Shown here: one piece after another, positions 3,056 to 53,910 of the stretch
Position numbering within the stretch: position 1 is the stretch's first letter
Layout of the letters: every line of letters starts with the position of its first letter
Source: Octopus vulgaris
Lineage: Eukaryota
Length of the DNA: 64,000 nucleotides
Assembly (NCBI GenBank): GCA_951406725.2
Contig: OX597824.1
Span: 24,552,001 to 24,616,000 of the forward strand
Direction of reading: 5' to 3'
Notes under the pieces: generated by a model
Told to the model about the DNA's origin: nothing
The model's input: the letters and a program-made list of their open reading frames with translations, nothing else
Databases searched by the model: none
Made by a program: the position numbers and the translations under genes

Positions 3056-3627
3056 GTTTCTTTATTACCCACAAGGGTCTAAACATAGAGAGGACAAACA
3101 AGGACAGACAAACGGATTAAGTCGATTATATCGACCTCAGTGCGTAACTGGTACTTAATTTATCGACCCCGAAAGGATGAAAGGCAAAGTCGACCTCGGC
3201 GGAATTTGAATTCAGAACGTAACGGCAGACGAAATACCTATTTCTTTACTACCCACTAGGGGCTAAACATAGAGGGAACAAACAGAGAAACGGATTAAGT
3301 CGATTATATCGACCCCAGTGCGTAACTGGTACTTAATTTATCGACCCCGAAAGGATGAAAGGCAAAGTCGACCTCGGCGGAATTTGAATTCAGAACGTAA
3401 TGGCAGACGAAATACCTATTTCTTTACTACCCACAATGGGCTAAACATTGAGGGAACAAACAAGGACAGAGAAACGGATTAAGTCGATTATATCGACCCT
3501 AGTGCGTAACTGGTACTTAATTTATCGACCCCGAAAGGATGAAAGGCAAAGTCGACCTCGGCGGAATTTGAACTCAGAACGTAACGGCAGACGAAATATA
3601 GTTAAACATTTCGTCCGGCGTCCTAAC
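3056..3627 (-). mobile_element. SINE multimer: partial head plus 3 bodies
   Basis: Three head-to-tail units joined at GAAATACC|TATTTC (3238 and 3416). Confidence 0.9.
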
Positions 3628-15760: not shown

Positions 15761-16316
15761 AGTTTATTCGCACTCCAAAATCTCATTCTTCCATTAAAGA
15801 AAAGGAAAGAACTGCCAGAAAAGGCAGCCAAAACTCCCTCAAATCGGACTCTTTTATTTAAAAAGAAAGGTACGCTAGGAATAGCGTTCTTTCGAATAAA
15901 TATTCCTTCATTTAATAGAAGAGAAGGCCAAGCTAGAAAAGGACACACACACAAAATAAATAATAAATGTGTCTATGTCCCCGTCACTTAGCGGTTCGGC
16001 AAAGAGACCGATTGAATAAGTACTGGGCTTACAAAGAATAAGTCGCGGGGTCGAGTTGCTCGATTAAAGGCGGTGCTCCAGCATGTCAGCAGTCAAATGA
16101 CTGAAACAAGTAAAAGAGTAAGATAAACTAAAAGCAGGAAAACCTTTCTCAAATCGCATTTTATTATTATCAACGAGGAGATAGAAGGTTGTCTAGTGTC
16201 GTCACGCTAGGAATAACTTGATCAAAGATGCGCTCTATCAGGACAGATTTCGTTAGTGAGAGGGACAAGAACAACAATAATAACGATAGTCTGTCTGTCT
16301 GTCCTATATACTGGGA

Positions 16317-16548
16317 AGGCGGCGAGAAGGCAGAAATGTTAGCATGCTGGGCGAAATGCTTTGCAGTATTTCGTCCACCGCTGCGTTCTGAGTTCAAATT
16401 CCGCCAAGGTCGGCTTTGCCTTTCATCCTTTCGGGGTCGATAAATTAAGTACCAGTTACACACTGAGGTTGATGTAATCGACTTAATCCGTTTGTCTGTC
16501 CTTGATTGTCCCCTCTGTGTTTAGCTCCTTGTGGGTAGTAAAGAAATA
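16317..16548 (+). mobile_element. Monomeric SINE (head plus one 184-bp body)
   Basis: A-box-like GGCAGAAATGTT, B-box GAGTTCAAATTCC; 12-bp TSD TATATACTGGGA at 16305-16316 and 16549-16560. Confidence 0.9.
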
Positions 16549-19265: not shown

Positions 19266-19689
19266 GAACAGCTAAGTTACGCAGACGTAAACACACCAAC
19301 ATCGATTGTCAAAAGATGGTGGTGGGGGAACAAATAGACACACACGTGTGTGTGTGTGTGTGTTTGTGTGTGTATGTGTGTGTGTGTGTTGTTGTTGTTG
19401 TGAGGTTTTGCGTGTAAACAAGATTAACAATTAATGAAAAAGATCAACAATGTGTAATCCTCAATATGGAGATGTTGAACAGCTAAGTTACGGAGACGTA
19501 AACACACCAGCATCGGTTGTCAAAAGATGGTGGTGGGGGAACAAATAGACACACACGTGTGTGTGTGTGTGTGTTTGTGTGTGTATGTGTGTGTGTTGTT
19601 GTTGTTGTTGTTGTGAGGTTTTGCGTGTAAACAAGATTAACAATTGATGAAAAAGATCAACAATGTGTAATCCTCAATATGGAGATGTT
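19266..19689. repeat. 211-bp tandem duplication of a SINE fragment plus flank
   Basis: GAACAGCTAAGTTAC begins at 19266 and 19477; both units end CAATATGGAGATGTT. Confidence 0.9.
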
Positions 19690-20003: not shown

Positions 20004-20585
20004 AAACAACAACTATCGGCGGGGTATTTTTCGTTTGTCACTATTATTTATGATATCGTTCGTGCCTCTGTACCGGTTTTAGCTTTAAGGTTTTAGGGTT
20101 AGGGTTTTAGGGTTAGGGTGTTAGTGTTAGCGTTTTAGTGTTAGGGCTACCACCTGTGTCATCTCTTGTGAAAGGTAGGAGAGTCCAGTTTGCTGGACAT
20201 TGTTGTAGAGCTGAAAAAGAAGTAATTTCTACTCTTCTCCTCTGGAAGCCATCTACTCGCAATACCAGAGGGCGCACACTCTCCTACCCTGATGTAATCT
20301 CCAGAGATACAGGCATCCAGCAACAGGACCTCCGTAATGCCATGATGGACCGTGAAGTCTGGCGTAGCATGGTAAATTCCATTGTCTCGACCACGGTCGA
20401 ACAATGATGATGAATGATGTTAGGGCTACGGTTTCAGGGTTAGGATTAGGGATTCAGGGTTAGGGCTAGGGTTTAGGGTTAGGGTTTTAGGGTTAGGGTG
20501 AGGGTTAGGGCTTCAGGGTTAGGGTTAGGGTTATCATACATAACAGTGACAAACAAAAAAAATACACTGCAGGAGGTTCTTGTTG
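20004..20585. mobile_element. Degenerate (TTAGGG)n tract between ~50-bp inverted repeats
   Basis: Left arm AACAACAACTATCGGCGGGGTATTTTTCGTTTGTCACTAT matches the reverse complement of 20532-20585; followed by a MITE-type end ...GGTAAAGATCC at 20812. Confidence 0.7.
20147..20417 (+). mobile_element. RTE/RTE-X-like 3' end inserted in telomere-like repeat
   Basis: Encodes LPPVSSLVKGRRVQFAGHC...VEQ*; (TGA)n tail; 12-bp TSD TGTTAGGGCTAC at 20139-20150 and 20418-20429. Confidence 0.9.
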
Positions 20586-27337: not shown

Positions 27338-27605
27338 TGCTCGCTCGCTCTCTCGTACGTCCCAACATCATTCATTTTCGAGGCCGGTCCAGTCGGCAAG
27401 TAGGTTATTAAAGACACCTCTGCCCATTTTGAATTCTGTGGCCACCGTCCTGCTGTTTCTATTGATGGAAACCCTTACGGAGATCTAAATGGCGAAATAC
27501 ACATCAGACAATGTAGGCCTAAATAAACTAACAGATGTGGTGGTCATGTTTAAAATGCCTTATAAAAATGGTTCTCATTCTATTTTAGTTCACGACTTAA
27601 TAGAT

Positions 27606-28733
27606 ATTCGCTTCTGCTCGAGGCACAAGGCCCGAAATTTTGGGGCAGGAAGACAGTCGATTGGGTCGACCTCAGTACGCAACTGGTACTTAATTTATCG
27701 ACCCCGAAAGGAGGAAAATTAAAGTCGACCTCGGTGGAATTTGAACTCAGAACGTAAAGATAGACGAAATACCTATTTCTATTTCTTTACTACCCACATG
27801 GGCCAAAAACACAGAGAGGACAAACGGATTAAGTCGATTATATCGATCTCAGTGCATAACTGGTACTTATTTAATCGACCCCGAAAGGATGAAAGGCAAA
27901 GTCGACTTCGGAGGAATTTGAACTCAGAACGTAGCGGCAGACGAAATACCTATTTCTTTATTACCCACAAGGGGCTAAACACAGAGAGGACAAACAAGGA
28001 CAGACAAACGGATTAAGTCGATTATATCGACCCTAGTGCGTAACTGGTACTTAATATATCGACCCCGAAAGGAGGAAAATTAAAGTCGACCTCGGTGGAA
28101 TTTGAACTCAGAACGTAAAGATAGACGAAATACCTATTTCTTTATTATCCACAAGGGGCTAAACACAGAGGGGACAAACAAGGACAGACATAGGTATTAA
28201 GTCGATTACATCGACCCTAGTGCGTAACTGGTACTTAATTTATCGACCCCGAAAGGATGAAAGGCAAAGTCGACCTCGGCGGAATTTGAACTCACAACGT
28301 AATGCAGACGAAATACCTATTTCTTTATTACCCACAAGGGGCTAAACACAGAGGGGACAAACAAGGACAGACATAGGTATTAAGTCGATTTCATCGACCC
28401 CAGTGCGTAACTGGTACTTAATTTATCGACCCCGAAAGGATGAAAGGCAAAGTCGACCTCGGCGGAATTTGAACTTAGAACGTAACGGCAGACGAAATAC
28501 CTATTTCTTTATTACCCACAAGGGGCTAAACACAGAGAGGACAAACAAGGACAGACATAGGTATTAAGTCGATTACATCGACCCCAGTGCGTAACTGGTA
28601 CTTAATTTATCGACCCCGAAAGGATGAAAGGCAAAGTCGACCTCGGCGAAATTTGAACTGAGAACGTAACGGCAGACGAAATACCGCTAAGCATTTCGCC
28701 CGGCGTTTCTAACGTTTCTGCCAGCTTGCCACC
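27606..28733 (-). mobile_element. SINE multimer: head plus 6 bodies; terminal body has the alternative tail
   Basis: Five junctions at the fixed site; single TSD TTCACGACTTAATAGAT at 27589-27605 and 28734-28750. Confidence 0.9.
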
Positions 28734-28849
28734 TTCACGACTTAATAGATGTTAATTCATTACTGACACACTAGAAATTAAATTAGTGACGTATTTCACA
28801 TGAAAAATTTTAGAGATGAAAATTAGAAAATTCACCGCGTATCAACATG

Positions 28850-29879: not shown

Positions 29880-30452
29880 ATTATCTCCTCTTCAGCCACA
29901 GAAATCTTGGGGGAGGACGTCAGTCGATTAGAACGATCTCCGCGCGCAACTGATACTAAATTTATCGACCCCGAAAGGATGAATGGCAAAGACGACCTCG
30001 GCGGAATTTGAACTGAAAACGTAGCGGCAGACGAAATACCTATTTCTTTACTACCCACAAGGGGCTAAACAGAGAGGGGACAAACAAGGACAGACAAACG
30101 AATTAAGTCGATTATATCGACCGCAGTGCGTAACTGGTACTTATTTAATAGACCCCGAAAGAATGAAAGGCAAAGTCGACCTCGGTGGAATTTGAACTGA
30201 AAACGTAGCGGCAGACGAAATACCTATTTCTTTACTACCCACAAGGGGCTAAACTCAGAGAGGACAAACAAGGACAGACAAACGAATTAAGTCGATTATA
30301 TCGACCGCAGTGCATAACTGGTACTTATTTAATCGACCCCGAAAGGATGACAGGCAAAGTGGACCTCGGCGGAACTTGAACTCAGAACGTAACGGCAGAC
30401 GAAATTACCGCTAAGCATTTCGTCCGGCGTGCAAACGATTCTGCCGGCTCGT
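29880..30452 (-). mobile_element. SINE multimer: head plus 3 bodies; terminal body has the alternative tail
   Basis: Junctions GAAATACC|TATTTC near 30040 and 30224. Confidence 0.9.
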
Positions 30453-37740: not shown

Positions 37741-38335
37741 TTTCCATCGCTTTCAACGGTTTATTTCTCACTGAAGAAGAGAAAGTCATTTTCCACGTCG
37801 TCTATAGTCAGCAGACAAAAGTTTTTATTAAAAAATATCAACCTGTCTAAAGTTTAAAGCAGGGAAGGCGCCATGACAGTCGTAACAGTTAAAGATATTT
37901 CTGCCTTGAATATTTTGTTTATCAAAGCGAAGAATTGACTTTTCCGAAGATTTTTCGAATAAATATTAATAACAAATGTGTAGGTGTTAATTCTTGAGAG
38001 CATAAATCGATCTTGTGGTCCAACACAGTAATGAGATGAGAGAGAGAAAACGGCACCAACAGAAAAACCACATATTCAACAACAACAAGAACAACAAGGA
38101 GAAGAACAACGACAACAACAACCAATACTAACATCAACAGTAGTGTTAACAACAACAAAATAAGAATAAATATAAGACGCAGGCATGGCTGTGTTTAAGA
38201 AGCTAGCTTTGTAACCGTGTGATTTTAGGTTCAGTCCTACTGCGCGGCATCTTGAGCAAGTGTTTTCTCTCACAGCCCCAGGTCGACCAATGCCGTGTGA
38301 GTGAGTTTGCTACACAAAGACTGTGTAGAAACCTG

Positions 38336-39120
38336 AAGGCGGCGAGCTGGCAGAAACGTTAGCACGCCAGGCGAAATGCTCAGCAGTATTTCGTCTGTCG
38401 CTACGTTTTGAGTTCAAATTCCGCCGAGGTCGACTTTGCCTTTCATCCTTTCGGGGTCGATTAAATAAGTACCAGTTACGCACTGGGGTCGATATAATCG
38501 ACTTTATCCCTTTGTCTGTCCTTGTTTGTCCTCTCTGAGTTTAGCCCCTTGTGGGTAGTAAAGAAATAGGTATTTCGTCTGCCGCTACGTTCTGAGTTCA
38601 AATTCCACCGAGGTTGACTTTGCCTTTCATCCTTTCGGAGTCGATAATTTAAGTACCAGTTACGCACTGGTGTCGAAATAATCGACTTAATCCGTTTGTC
38701 TGTCCTTGTTTGTCCTCTCTGGGTTTAGCCCCTTGTGGGTAGTAAAGAAATAGGTATTTCGTCTGCTGCTACGTTCTGAGTTCAAATTTCACCGAGGTCG
38801 ACTTTGCCTTTCATCCTTTCTGGGTCGATAAATTAAGTACCAGTTATGCACTGGTGTCAAAATGATCGACTTAATCCGCTTGTCTGTCCTTGTTTGTCCT
38901 CTCTGTGTTTAGCCCCTTGTGCGTAGTAAAGAAATAGGTATTTCGTCTGCAGTTACGTTCTGAGTTCAAATTCCACCGAGGTTGACTTTGCCTTTCATCC
39001 TTTCGGAGTCGATAATTTAAGTACCAGTTACGCACCGGGGTCGATACAATCGACTTAATCCGTTTGTCTGTCATTGTTCGTCCCCTCTATGTTTAGCCCC
39101 TTGTGGGCAATAAAGAAATA
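38336..39120 (+). mobile_element. SINE multimer: head plus 4 bodies of 184 bp
   Basis: Bodies 2-4 start at 38569, 38753 and 38937; single TSD AGAAACCTG at 38327-38335 and 39121-39129; inserted in another SINE. Confidence 0.95.
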
Positions 39121-39399
39121 AGAAACCTGTCGGGCTCACAATCATGAGGTAATGAGTTTGATTCTCGCACTGGGCTCTTTGTTGTGTTCTTGAGCAAGAC
39201 ACTTTATTTCACGCTGCTCCAGTTCACTCAGCTGTAGAAATGAGTTGCGACGTCACTGGAGCGGAGCTGTATCGGCCTTTGCCTTTCCCTGGGAGTGTCG
39301 AAAATGAAGATGGTTACGTAACTCTTGTTATTTTCTCATTTATTAATTAATATTATGCACTGTACCTGCTTGACACTTTACTTTGAAGCAAAAGTATAT

Positions 39400-39859: not shown

Positions 39860-40665
39860 CACACACACACACCACACAACTACATCCTAAACCACCACGG
39901 CTTCTACAACACACAGACCATACAACTACTACCTAAACAACAGACTACGCCAACCACTACAGTTAAATGCACCACAGTACTATAGCTAACACACCCACAC
40001 ACAACTACTATGGCCCAAACACACATACTACACTACCACAGCACATACACACACACACCATACAACTACTACGTAAACCACTACAGTTAAACGCACTACA
40101 GTACTATAGCTAACACACCCACACACAACTACTATAGCCCAAACACACACACACGCATACTATACTACTACAGCGCATACACACACTACACAACTACATC
40201 CTAAACCACCGTGGCTTCTACAACACACAGACCATACAACTACTACCTAAACAACAGACTACGCCAACCACTACAGTTAAACGCACCACAGTACTATAGC
40301 TAACACACCCACACACAACTACTATGGCCCAAACACACACACACACACAACAGCACATGCACACGCACTACACAACTACATCCTAAACCACCATGGCTTC
40401 TACAACACACAGACCATACAACTACTACGTAAACCACTACAGTTAAACGCACCACAGTACTATAGCTAACACACCCACACACAACTACTATAGCCCAAAC
40501 ACACACACACATACTACACTACTACAGCACATACACACACTATACAACTACATCCTAAACCACCATGGCTTCTACAACACAGCCCATACAACTACTACGT
40601 AAACCACTACAGTTAAACGCACCACAGTACTATAGCTAACACACCCACACACAACTACTATGGCC

Positions 40666-40710
<45 letters not shown>

Positions 40711-42020
40711 CTACATCCTAAACCACCATGGCTTCTACAACACACAGACCATACAACTACTACGTAAACCACGTAAACCACTACAGTTAAACGCACCACA
40801 GTACTATAGCTAACACACTCACACACAACTACTATAGCCCAAACACACACACACATACTACACTACAACAGCACATGCACATGCACTACACAACTACATC
40901 CTAAACTACCATGGCTTCTACAACACACAGCCCATACAACTACTACGTAAACCACTACAGTTAAACGCACCACAGTACTATAGCTAACACACCCACACAC
41001 AACTACTATGGCCCAAACACACACACACACACACAACAGCACATACACACCATACAACTACATCCTAAACCACCATGGCTTCTACAACACACAGACCATA
41101 CAACTACTACGTAAACCACTACAGTTAAACGCACCACAGTACTATAGCTAACACACCCACACACAACTACTATAGCCCAAACACACACACACATACTACA
41201 CTACTACAGCACATACACACACTATACAACTACATCCTAAACCACCATGGCTTCTACAATACAGCCCATACAACTACTACGTAAACCACTACAGTTAAAC
41301 GCACCACAGTACTATAGCTAACACACCCACACACAACTACTATAGCCCAAACACACACACACATACTACACTACTACAGCACATACACACACTATACAAC
41401 TACATCCTAAACCACCATGGCTTCTACAACACAGCCCATACAACTACTACGTAAACCACTACAGTTAAACGCACCACAGTACTATAGCTAACACACCCAC
41501 ACACAACTACTATAGCCCAAACACACACACACATACTACACTACTACAGCACATACACACACTATACAACTACATCCTAAACCACCATGGCTTCTACAAC
41601 ACAGCCCATACAACTACTACGTAAACCACTACAGTTAAACGCACCACAGTACTATAGCTAACACACCCACACACAACTACTATAGCCCAAACACACACAC
41701 ACATACTACACTACTACAGCACATACACACACTATACAACTACATCCTAAACCACCATGGCTTCTACAACACAGCCCATACAACTACTACGTAAACCACT
41801 ACAGTTAAACGCACCACAGTACTATAGCTAACACACCCACACACAACTACTATGGCCCAAACACACACACATACTACACTACCACAGTACATACACACAC
41901 TATACAACTACATCCTAAACCACCATAGCTTCTACAACACACGGCCTATACAACTACTACGTAAACCACTACAGTTAAACGCACCACAGTACTGTAACTA
42001 ACACACCCACACACAACTAC
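39860..42020. repeat. 170-bp satellite, about 13 copies
   Basis: TATAGCCCAA at 41171, 41341, 41511 and 41681 (period 170); ACAGTTAAA occurs 13 times. Confidence 0.95.
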
Positions 42021-42941: not shown

Positions 42942-43228
42942 GGATCTTTTCGGTTTGAACGGCAATTTTTTCTAGTGGTGTCATATGAAATTGTCACTCG
43001 TAATTATAACCCTATTATCGATCTATTGCATTTCAATGTCTTAGGGTTAGGGTTAGGGTTAGTTAGAGTTAGTTAGGGTTAGGGTTAGGACTAGGGGTGG
43101 AGGGAAGGTATCTTTTTTTCTTCACAAATGTAAATAAACCCAATCTGTTTCTACCAGTATACGAAGTTTAAAATTTTTTAGTTACCTAGAAATTATGTTA
43201 CAAACTGCCGTTCAAACCGAAAAGATCC
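42942..43228. mobile_element. MITE, Merlin-like, internally deleted
   Basis: Same TIRs as 26231; 8-bp TSD CTTTCTTT; several internal TTAGGG units. Confidence 0.9.
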
Positions 43229-43950: not shown

Positions 43951-44610
43951 AAAGGCGGTGACCTGGCAGAATCGTTAGCACGCGAAATGCTTAGCGGTAT
44001 TTCGTCTACCGCTACGTTCCGAGTTCAAATTCCGCCGAGGTCGACTTTGCCTTTCATCCTTTCGGGGTCGATTAAATAAGTACCAGTTACGCACTGGGGT
44101 CGATATATATTTCTTTACTACCCACAAGGGGCCAAACATAGAGGGGACAAACAAGGACAGACAAAGGGATTAAGTCGATTACATCGACCCCAGTGCGTAA
44201 CTGGTACTTAATTTATCGACCCCGAGAGGATGAAAGGCAAAGTCGACCTCGGCGGAATTTGAACTCAGAAAGTAACGACAGACGAAATACCGCTGAGGAT
44301 TTCGCCCGGCGTGCTAACGTTTCTGCCAGCTCGCCGCACTGGGGTCGATATAATCGACTTAATACCTTTGTCCTTGTTTGTCCCCTCTATGTTTAGCCCC
44401 TTGTGGGCAATAAAGAAATAAGACCCGTTAGCACGCCGGGCAAAATGCTTAGCGGCATTTCGTCCGTCTTTACTTTCTGAGTTCAAATTCCGCTGAGGTC
44501 AACTTTGCCTTTCAACCTTAATGAGTACCAGTTGAGTACTGGAGTCGATGTAATCGACTTAACCACTTCCCCTAAATTGCTGGCCTTGTGCCTATAGTAA
44601 AGAATAACAT
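43951..44610. mobile_element. Three nested SINEs of the 184-bp family
   Basis: Minus copy 44108-44335 has a 17-bp TSD GCACTGGGGTCGATATA and sits inside a plus copy, which abuts an alternative-tail copy. Confidence 0.9.
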
Positions 44611-45329
44611 TAGTACAAGACTAAGGCAGCGAGCCGGTAGAATCAATGGCACACCGGACCAAATATATAGCGGCGTTTAATTCGTCTTTACATTCTGAGT
44701 TCAAGTTCCACCGAGGTTCACTTTACATTCTTTTGAGTTCGATAGAATAAGTACCAGTTGAATACTGAGGTCGATGTAATCAACTTACCCTACTGAAATT
44801 GCTAGCCTTATACCAAAATTTGAAACCAATATTTCCAATAACAACAAATACGACACTGTGGACATGAAGTAGCCACTACATGGTCTCTCGATCTGCTAAA
44901 AATAGTAGTGAAATCACCAGCTAATCACTAATTCGTCGTCGTAATGCGGCTCCGGGTTTTCTGTACTTAATGAAATAGATGGGATGGACACAGCTAGAAG
45001 CATTTCGATCAAAGATCCGATCGGTCATGGGTCTCTTGCTGTTAAAGAAATAAGAAGAACAATATCATTAGTAATAATGATGATTCAAAAAAGAAATACA
45101 TCACGTGGTTATTTGGCGAGGTAGAAACAGCAGCCAAATGTTTCTTCAGTTATTATTACACGCTGCTATACTAAAATGAAAGTACAATCTTAGATACCCC
45201 GTTCTTAAAAACGCACAAATGGTTATAGTTGGAGTGAGCATGAGACATCTTGGCACAGCCGTTTTGGCGTTACTTGTTTGGCGTCACTGACTGAAGCTGA
45301 TTTATTTGACACAAGCCGTTTTAATGTTC

Positions 45330-51175: not shown

Positions 51176-52325
51176 ATCTTTTCTAACATAGGTACAAGGC
51201 CTGAAATTTGGAGGAGGGTGATAGTCGATTGCATCGACCCCAGTACTAAACTGGTACTTAATTTATCAATCCCGAATAGATGAAAGGCAAAGTCGACCTC
51301 GGCGGAATTTGAACTCAGAACGCAACGGCAGACGAAATACCTATTTCTTTACTACCTACAAGGGGCGAAACACAGAGGAGACAAACAAGGACATACAGAC
51401 GGATTAAGTCGATTATATCGACCCCAGTGCGTAACTGGTACTTAATTTATCAACCCCGAAAGGATGAATGGCAAAGTCGACCTCGGCGGAATTGGAACTC
51501 AGAACGTAACGGCAGACGAAATATCTATTTCTTTACTACCTACAAGGGGCGAAACACAGAGGAGACAAACAAGGACAGACAGACGGATTAAGTCGATTAT
51601 ATCGACCACAGTGCGTAACTGGTACTCTGTCGCTACGTTCTGAGTTCAAATTCCGCCGAGGTTGACTTTGCTTTTCATCCTTTCGGGGTCGATTAAATAA
51701 GTACCAGTTACGCACTGGGGTCGATGTAATCGACTTAATCCGTCTGTCTGTCCTTGTTTGTCCTCTCTGTGTTTAGCCCCTTGTGGGCAGTAAAGAAACA
51801 GGTATTTCGTCTGCCACTACGTTCTGAGGTCGACCTTGCCTTTCATCCTTTCGGGGTCGATTAAATAAGTACCAGTTACGCACTGGGGTCGATGTAATCG
51901 ACTTAATCCGTCTGTCTGTCCTTGTTTGTCCTCTCTGTGTTTAGGCCCTTGTGGGTAGTAAAGAAACAGGCATTTCGTCTGCCGCTACGTTCTGAGATCA
52001 AATCCCGCCGAGGTCGACTTTGCTTTTTATCCTTTCGGAGTCGATTAAATAAGTACCAGTTACGCACTGGGGTCGATGTAATCGACTTAATCCGTCTGTC
52101 TGTCCTTGTTTGTCCTCTCTGTGTTTAGCCCCTTGTGGGCAGTAAAGAAACAGGTATTTCGTCTGCCACTACGTTCTGAGGTCGACCTTGCCTTTCATCC
52201 TTTCGGGGTCGATTAAATAAGTACCAGTTATGCACTGGGGTCGATATAATCGACTTAATCCGTTTGTCTGTCCTTGTTTGTCCTCTCTGTGTTTAGCCCC
52301 TTGTGGGTAGTAAAGAAATAGGTAT
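51176..52325. mobile_element. Two headless SINE multimers in inverted orientation (about 2.5 units minus, 4 units plus)
   Basis: Strand switch near 51626; plus-strand units start near 51627, 51801, 51970 and 52152. Confidence 0.9.
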
Positions 52326-52780: not shown

Positions 52781-53012
52781 AAGGCGGCGAGCTGGCAGAA
52801 ACGTTAGCACGCCGGGCGAAATGCTTTGCGGTATTTCGTCTGCCGTTACGTTCTGAGTTCAAATTCCGCCGAGGTCGACTTTGCCTTTCATCCTTTCGGG
52901 GTCGATAAATTAAGTACCAGTTACGCACTGGGGTCGATATAATCGACTTAATCGATTTGTCTGTCCTTGTTTATCCCCTCTGTGTTTAGCCCCTTGTGGG
53001 TAGTAAAGACAT
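52781..53012 (+). mobile_element. Intact monomeric 184-bp-body SINE with short A-tail
   Basis: TSD AATTCTTCAAT at 52769-52779 and 53020-53030. Confidence 0.9.
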
Positions 53013-53910
53013 AAAAAAAAATTCTTCAATAAAAAGCGTGAACTGTCTCATGAACTCCGATCACTGAATATTCAGTACCAGTCCAAGTAGTTACCTATTA
53101 TGTAACAAGATACTATCCCCTATCTTTTAACGCTTCGGGCAACTATAGCGTAAGGGACTACAAAGAAGAAAAAATAGGGGGTTACTAATTTAAAAAATGT
53201 CGATTGTCAGAACACAACACACATGGCAAAAGAACCCGGCAGAATACATGCACGACTTAGAAAGAAGTACAAATGTCCATTTGTTCGATGAAACCTTCCA
53301 AAGCGATGTCCCTGGACGGCTGCAGTCTAATATCTAAAACAAGTAGAAAGATTTCAGGTTTTAGACTGCGGCCATGCTGGGGCACCACCTTCAAGAATTT
53401 TAATCGAACCTACACTAGTATTTAATTTTATTTTAAAGCCAGGTACTTATTCTATCAGTTCTTTTCGCCGAACCGCTAAGTTACGGAGTCGTAAACAAAC
53501 CAACACCGGTTATCAAGCGGTGGTGATGCACAAACAAACACTGTCATATACATATATACGACGGGATTCTTTCAGTTCACGTCAACCATATCCACTCACA
53601 AGGGTTTGGTCGGCCTGAGGGTATAGGAGAAAAGACTTGCACGATATACTACATAGCGGGATTGAACCCGGAACCATATTGTTGGGAAGCAAACTTCATA
53701 CCCTGTAGCCACGCCTGCACCTAGAGCTACGCCTGCGCCTAGAGCCACGCCCACCTTTTAATATATATTTTTAAGTACTGTATCAAAAGGAGTAGATTCC
53801 TTTTATGTTCTGAGTTCTTATTCTTCCTATCTTGGTTTTACTTCTTATTTCTCTCAGGTTTCACCTCTTGCTTCTCCTCCTCCTCCGACAACCACCAAAC
53901 TAAACGTACA

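Follow-up and report, generated by a model that had tools for sequence, protein, structure and literature searches.

Octopus SINE arrays probably seeded by site-specific insertion of a SINE into its own copies

Introduction

The closest described systems include the target-specific Tx1-clade LINEs and their SINEs (Tx1-Mar/SINEU-3, Keno, Kibi, Koshi), and tandem copies of SINEU-3 are read in the available text of PMC4494074 as the products of sequential insertions. For the Drosophila R1 element, which occupies 28S rDNA, the accessible portion of PMC2718515 describes an element RNA with upstream target sequence that leads to precise 5' junctions, together with a top-strand cut about 14 bp downstream, which yields a target site duplication (TSD) followed by duplicated upstream sequence; tandem arrays of R1 are also mentioned. 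In octopus, OR1 and OR2 have been named as tRNA-derived CORE SINEs (PMC4758252; PMC4824008; PMC5804259), with no mention of arrays or targeting in the accessible parts of these articles, and the words ‘target’ and ‘nested’ are absent from the available main text of a 2026 octopus repeat annotation (PMC13282606). The literature searched held no earlier description of a system in which SINEs insert into SINEs; Repbase, subscription journals and supplements that we have not seen lie outside this search and may hold one.

Here we analyse a 64-kb window (the whole stretch of octopus DNA under study), for which an original prediction had proposed that a SINE builds multimers of one head and several bodies, joined at a fixed nucleotide.

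Materials and methods

The genome comprises 2.8 Gb in 227 contigs. The sample consisted of the window plus 230 loci (1.64 Mb), namely the 30 best monomer matches, 40 10-kb stretches chosen by position (six of them beside the window) and, for the remainder, loci around sites on contig C1 that match a junction or head pattern exactly; most loci were picked by exact patterns on this contig. Edge-touching elements were removed and duplicates merged, which left 520 elements, and 149 arrays were analysed after exclusion of two paralogous loci. Tail types and targets were compared at loci not selected by junction, with T-type tails defined at base 221. The LINE query consisted of 440 bases of the 3' region at locus L230, without tail or SINE, and returned 789 candidates, of which the best 30 loci were examined.

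Results

The SINE is short (233 nt), non-coding, dispersed and of high copy number (thousands of exact matches), and is represented by three families that have head and core in common and differ in their tails: A (233 nt), B (218 nt) and the older C (218 nt). The family A monomer divides into a 49-nt head and the 184 nt that are repeated in the arrays, and a TSD is present at 59 of 80 A monomers. Box-like motifs are discernible by eye in the head, and position 50 is placed at the tip of a long predicted hairpin; Rfam, run on one monomer, and ARAGORN, run on the window, returned no match to the head. In the array at 38336 the head may act as a Pol III promoter. The tRNA-like head, common central region and exchangeable tails presumably place the element close to the octopus OR1/OR2 CORE SINEs. 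This name is, however, a candidate one, since the supplements searched (PMC4758252 and PMC5804259) contained no OR1/OR2 consensus.

The window contains 17 internal junctions spread over six runs (Table 1) and, as predicted, all of them join a tail (..AAAGAAAYA) to SINE position 50, with one base changed in the start GGTATTTCG in two cases and an extra GAAATA in one. Also confirmed is the presence of one TSD around the whole of the 38336 and 27605 arrays (the latter given as 27606 in the prediction), measuring 9 bp and at least 14 bp, respectively. The arrays had been thought to consist purely of a head and repeated bodies, but in three of the six runs the last unit belongs to another family (tail B). 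The 38336 locus is made up of the 49-nt head, four 184-nt bodies and the 9-bp TSD. Its unit 4 is likely the founder element, with a C-type tail that fits the AGA-type TSD, while rare variants link the 5' half of unit 2 to unit 4 and its middle to unit 3, so that unit 2 has been touched by local duplication or exchange. Within the nest at 43952, an antisense A element has a TSD, and an A tail abuts a C element near position 17-22.

Table 1. Coordinates of the SINE arrays and associated features in the window.
Feature	Position	Strand	
Array A(23-233)-A-A, 2 junctions, 10-bp TSD	3057-3627	-	
Family A monomer with TSD	16316-16548	+	
Array head-A-A-A-A-A-B, 5 junctions, within one TSD	27605-28735	-	
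Array head-A-A-B, 2 junctions, B 3'-truncated	29901-30451	-	
9-bp TSD, left copy AGAAACCTG, founder insertion, AGA-type target	38327-38335	+	
Array of 4 units, 3 junctions	38336-39120	+	
SINE head, positions 1-49, tRNA-like, A-box-like	38336-38384	+	
Unit 1 body, family A, T-type tail	38385-38568	+	
Unit 2 (SINE 50-233)	38569-38752	+	
Unit 3 (SINE 50-233), T-type tail	38753-38936	+	
Unit 4 (SINE 50-233), C-type tail	38937-39120	+	
9-bp TSD, right copy AGAAACCTG	39121-39129	+	
Nest of A and C elements	43952-44831	.	
Two headless arrays, back to back	51177-52320	.	
Headless array A-A-B, 2 junctions	51177-51626	-	
Headless array of four A units, 3 junctions	51626-52320	+	
Family A monomer with TSD, taken as reference	52781-53013	+	

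Several other features of the window were recorded. The two opposite headless arrays meet at 51626, possibly as the result of a deletion between inverted copies. A 170-bp tandem repeat bearing no relation to the SINE (10.4 copies, 93% matches) occupies 40258-42020, and a 211-bp duplication and several interstitial TTAGGG-like tracts are distributed over 19266-19689, 20075-20146, 20419-20533 and 43041-43089.

The junction is not confined to the window. One exact 29-base sequence joining the tail to position 50 occurs 13,966 times genome-wide (reversed-pattern control, 0) and is not due to chance; the corresponding junction with a sister-SINE tail occurs three times, all inside one local array, and an exact 31-base word spanning head and body has 7,696 matches. 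The proposal of a single fixed nucleotide requires amendment, in that position 50 is dominant but a second fixed junction, between C-type A tails and position 17, has 643 exact matches and makes 217-bp units. Among the 520 elements, the SINE sequence next to an A tail starts at position 50 in 236 cases, at 51/52 in 17, at position 17 in 16 and at position 1 in four, and no B or C tail is joined to position 50. Even in the position-chosen stretches (400 kb), 14 of 31 A tails stop at SINE position 50. Most arrays are short (two units in 92 of 149; the longest has seven), and the 68 elements at head-anchored loci comprise 41 monomers, 18 dimers, eight trimers and one hexamer. An assembly artefact was dismissed in view of the 5-15% differences between units and the TSDs.

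Target choice outside the SINEs points to the same site. Where an A tail is followed by non-SINE sequence (n = 150), the most frequent targets are GGTAT (27, against a background of 0.00074 per position), TATAT (18) and AGAAA (14), and a matrix made from these 150 sites ranks position 50 first in both A and B, on either strand. T-type tails are found against position 50 in 92 of 156 cases, GG sites in 41 and AGA sites in none, and the C-type (CAA/CAG) tails (n = 52) against AGA sites in 13, position 17 in six, position 50 in seven and GG in one. The base preceding the cut is C or T at 26 of 32 T-type sites; it is C before position 50 and A at internal junctions, which would thus be disfavoured, so that new units would be expected to enter at the array front. 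This motif does not account for the whole preference: 14 insertions were found at 26 SINE sites versus approximately 2.5 at 566 other GGTAT sites, which leaves a roughly 100-fold per-site preference for SINE sites unexplained by five bases, and the motif must be supplemented by RNA/cDNA pairing or by a recognition site of greater length. Downstream TSD copies lean towards the motif (9 versus 2, p = 0.065), a weak hint of 3' read-through annealing of the kind proposed for R1 in the accessible part of PMC2718515. Six loci (L221, L169, L066, L042, L174 and L073) hold another LINE-like 3' end, likewise with an A-like tail, and five of these six copies end in a TATC microsatellite; this element may represent a sister family with another target, and may be the source of the TATAT/GATAT class of SINE sites.

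The arrays are polar with respect to both family and age. Their last units are of type A in 87, B in 38 and C in four of the 149 arrays and truncated in 20, with several B/C subtypes and ages represented. In 135 arrays, core divergence is higher in the last unit than in the first in 77 and lower in 36 (p = 5e-5), and the same tendency (24 versus 7) holds for the 37 arrays in which neither search pattern occurs. When A-ended arrays are taken separately, the test on the core alone is weak (42 versus 27, p = 0.08) and that on the whole body is significant (49 versus 30, p = 3e-4). Heads, in contrast, are young, with 5.0% divergence in the 15 arrays whose last unit is at least 10% diverged. Despite their young first units, A..B arrays have decayed outer TSDs (23/253 mismatches, 3/16 perfect) in comparison with A monomers (42/889 mismatches, 31/59 perfect; p = 0.013 and 0.023), TSD decay and last-unit divergence being uncorrelated over 47 arrays (rho 0.12). 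Given an older last unit of mixed family inside a decayed outer TSD, the last unit appears to act as a pre-existing genomic target.

Further evidence of insertion at position 50 is provided by elements with two heads. A head was predicted to occur at most once per array, which holds in the window but not genome-wide, where this rare class has 21 exact matches at 18 distinct places and, with a strand skew of 19:2, is probably undercounted. In L169, L097 and most of the other matches, an old head and bases 50-64/65 are followed by a complete new A element and then by bases 50 onward; the duplicated bases therefore constitute a TSD of 15-16 bp inside the SINE. A private base is common to both TSD copies in L295 and L169, and L309 is a B element split by an insertion of this kind with an internal TSD. 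In some of the matches, by contrast, heads lie in tandem, or a head precedes B.

Other tandem arrangements were also observed. Repeats of the head only (positions 1-64/65), in up to eight copies, are present at L296, L307, L310 and L312. Further tandems of SINE fragments at L270 (156-233, four copies) and at L118 and L139 (184-233; 23-187) have boundaries that vary by locus, unlike the fixed position-50 junction.

A LINE uses the same site. At L230, LINE coding remnants and an A-like tail abut position 50 of a B element, and this junction recurs in 27 of the best 30 of 789 candidate loci (26 by an automatic rule, including the query copy, and one by eye); one of the other three could not be read far enough and two do not fit. 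The body after the junction at these 30 loci is B in 17, A in eight, C in one and not callable in four. LINE-type junctions number 388, and the exact LINE-tail pattern has four matches, all within the existing sample. At the opposite end, all 14 exact matches to intact LINE 5' ends are preceded by SINE bases 50-63, which could be a TSD or else a leader carried by the RNA of the LINE; four retain the head and 10 are preceded by an A tail, i.e. by a later SINE insertion at the same site. Flanks of this one SINE at 27 of 30 3' ends and 14 of 14 5' ends exceed the share (>20% of flanks) by which insertion into one repeat is recognised in the available text of PMC4494074.

The full-length LINE measures about 5.1 kb and contains RVT_1 (2e-20) and zf-RVT (1.5e-5) domains, with sub-threshold matches, in decayed fragments, to the endonuclease domain Exo_endo_phos (0.011) and the zinc knuckle zf-CCHC (0.003). 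Its close homologues, which carry no clade name, have all three ORF2 domains (AP-type endonuclease, RT and zinc-binding), and comparison with the PDB gave weak matches to human L1 ORF2p. The element may be termed ‘Tx1-like’ from its architecture and behaviour taken together, the domain set being common to L1 and thus not diagnostic alone. SINE positions 190-232 align to LINE 3' ends with approximately 80-91% identity. However, the LINE tail is C-type at 221-223, while C-type SINEs avoid GG sites, so that the assignment of partners is not clean, and T-type SINEs may in truth be mobilised by a sister of this LINE. At L272, SINE positions 1-114 run directly into an internal part of LINE ORF1, perhaps through a switch of template from the RNA of one element to that of the other. 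Many LINE copies among L231-L280 have large internal deletions, and SINE-rich nests often adjoin them.

Once formed, some arrays lengthen in place with the junction kept. Units are closer within arrays than between them (distances of 0.074 and 0.095), 49 of 232 within-array pairs are less than 4% apart against 3.5 expected, and two or more rare variants are common within the array in 5/53 dimers, 13/44 trimers and 9/13 longer arrays, in comparison with 0.5% of random pairs. Hybrid or alternating units are found in the window arrays at 29901, 27605, 38336 and 51626: in the 27605 array the 5' half of unit 4 is common to the terminal B unit, unit 2 of the 29901 array resembles the B unit in its 5' part and unit 1 in its 3' part, and the alternation of full and deleted units in the 51626 array indicates local duplication of a dimer. 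The paralogous loci L143 and L145 have three and two units, respectively. Independent unequal crossovers had been expected not to reuse one breakpoint; once a dimer exists, however, any crossover within the bodies preserves the junction, and junction-preserving duplications are observed, the 38336 array among them, so that the argument fails for growth and stands for seeding. The segmental duplicates L143/L145 and L188/L189 share SINE insertions, and L143 and L145 also contain a tandem array of about 212 bp.

Discussion

The arrays were probably seeded by site-specific, target-primed insertion into SINE copies, and some were subsequently extended by local duplication. The observations on which this reading is based are the fixed junction, the asymmetry of the tails, the older and mixed last units, the GGTAT bias, the canonical TSDs at position 50, the presence of a like-tailed LINE at the same site and the local duplications. 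On this reading, resident SINEs would be nicked at the 49/50 boundary by the endonuclease of a LINE, and the nick would receive either a new family A copy or the LINE. Homology between the cDNA and the old head would in most cases let the new head take the place of the old (compare the R1 transcripts with upstream target sequence described in the accessible part of PMC2718515), and the product would be a head-(body)n array within the original TSD of the founder. Units would be added by repeated insertion, with the front site favoured, and in longer arrays by in-place duplication of junction-spanning segments. We infer that the LINE protein does the cutting, and likewise the route of head replacement and the source of the extra preference for SINE sites. 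Counting against insertion is the sharing of the 127/130 haplotype within two-unit arrays beyond chance (34 same, 14 different; n = 48). A cross-species contig comparison at L165 (four runs, four organism labels) was swamped by paralogous SINE contigs, no listed piece spanned an array, and an empty allele from before insertion did not come to light. As for the mechanisms listed in the original prediction, site-specific self-insertion is the best supported, and rolling-circle copying and a single multimeric master are not supported.

End-to-end template jumping, also on that list, is improbable. Reverse transcriptase would begin on an A, B or C RNA, halt at position 50 through head structure or cleavage and jump to the 3' end of an A-tailed RNA, which would account for young heads, a single outer TSD and mixed families without head replacement; the location of position 50 at the hairpin tip is compatible with such a halt, and the L272 fusion suggests that template switches may happen. 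However, headless copies do not pile up at position 50 (eight elements start at 49-52, three of them behind an A-type tail end), and first units are younger than both the last units and the outer TSDs. Of the LINE copies, 12 that seem to be 5'-truncated have no old head upstream, and an outer TSD surrounds the LINE and SINE in one of the 12 (null 4%) versus 9 of 17 truncated monomers, which argues against composite RNAs; the missing head counts against the insertion reading, which does not account for it. Nor does template jumping explain why GGTAT is favoured at ordinary sites or why TSDs occur internally.

It is very unlikely that the arrays descend from multimeric masters, i.e. from arrays read through by Pol III and retrotransposed whole, although these may contribute a minority. 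A run of four T terminates Pol III, and the A consensus has no such run; furthermore, the TSD of the 3057 array lies right at its truncated head, and the lean of downstream TSD copies towards the motif suggests short 3' read-through. Nevertheless, a comparison of 3,081 array pairs gave none that are close in the first as well as the last unit, with a correlation of 0.07, or 0.01 without locally similar arrays, so that the fixed unit order inherited from an Alu-like master is not seen. The age of the TSDs and the several subtypes and ages of the B/C last units also weigh against this origin.

An equally slim chance attaches to a process at the DNA level only, in which one ancestral junction was spread by ectopic gene conversion and unequal crossover through the common core. 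Local duplications are indeed common in long arrays, and the last unit begins with an A-type base in 4 of the 26 B/C-ended arrays unselected by junction pattern (one of which is a LINE junction). In the other 22, however, position 65 of the last unit carries the B/C base, and 16 of 23 scorable arrays combine an A-type first unit with a B-type last unit at this position, which, together with the young heads, is the opposite of the old head and donor-type post-junction sequence that such spread predicts. LINE junctions, the position-17 class and internal TSDs are likewise left unexplained, and as a seeding step this process is largely refuted, though it holds good for growth.

Rolling-circle copying, by reverse transcription of a circular RNA of 184 nt, can hardly be entertained, even though the tail end GAAATA is complementary to bases 52-57 and could bring the ends together and 7 of 53 dimers agree at all diagnostic sites (2% of between-array pairs), since 41 of the 53 two-unit A-A arrays differ at two or more of nine diagnostic sites, and the LINE units and the B/C last units (42 of 149 arrays end in another family) cannot derive from one circle. 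Cleavage in the tRNA loop followed by RNA ligation was dropped, headless copies at position 50 not being in excess.

Returning to site-specific insertion, we tentatively extend it to a form of SINE homing, for which the case is somewhat less than even. The LINE could have adopted the most abundant SINE as a landing pad, and a SINE carrying both the LINE tail and the target could then home into its own copies through RNA/cDNA homology at both ends. Old heads would be overwritten by fresh promoters and old copies revived, and the supply of targets would grow with each insertion; satellites derived from SINEs in other animals may be seeded likewise. If the insertion reading is true, the pair would be a target-specific LINE and SINE whose safe haven is the SINE family itself, on a large scale. 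The 5'-joining step is poorly understood, and the genome offers its natural outcomes in the tens of thousands, in which the same cut can be compared with homology (SINE, seamless) and without it (LINE, TSD or loss), as well as a testable route from SINE to satellite. The arrays also carry a warning, in that repeat libraries and age landscapes of such genomes mix young and old units in one ‘element’.

In comparison with known systems, the octopus arrays share with Tx1/SINEU a LINE and a SINE that have a preferred repeated target in common; according to the available text of PMC4494074, the targets there are microsatellites, genes or other elements, with a TSD enclosed between tandem copies, whereas here the target is the head/body boundary of the SINE itself and most junctions are seamless. 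The double-head class resembles R1 in its TSD and duplicated upstream sequence (PMC2718515, accessible part), but the R1 target is an essential multicopy gene, while here the targets are dispersed SINEs and the homology lies in the non-autonomous element's own head. Like Zepp, a non-LTR element that builds nested copies within itself, the SINE accumulates in its own sequence; Zepp, as described in the accessible text of PMC3446292, is an autonomous LINE with approximately one cluster per chromosome, in contrast to tens of thousands of SINE junctions here. With the SINE-derived satellites (sSats) of squamates, for which the available text of PMC10702118 reports tandem units of a partial SINE with a longer terminal unit, uniform boundaries and local amplification in long arrays, the octopus arrays share the partial-SINE units, the longer terminal unit, the uniformity of boundaries from locus to locus and the local amplification in longer arrays. 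Long, homogenised arrays are not found in the octopus sample (92 of 149 have two units, and the distances are 0.074 within and 0.095 between arrays). The squamate satellites arise mainly by duplication and concerted evolution according to the same source, while the octopus arrays are short (2-7 units in the sample), have older sister-family ends and are accompanied by a visible targeting LINE. By analogy, the system might thus be described as combining targeting of the Tx1 type with an R1-like homologous 5' join and Zepp-like self-nesting, in arrays that have the appearance of short squamate sSats.
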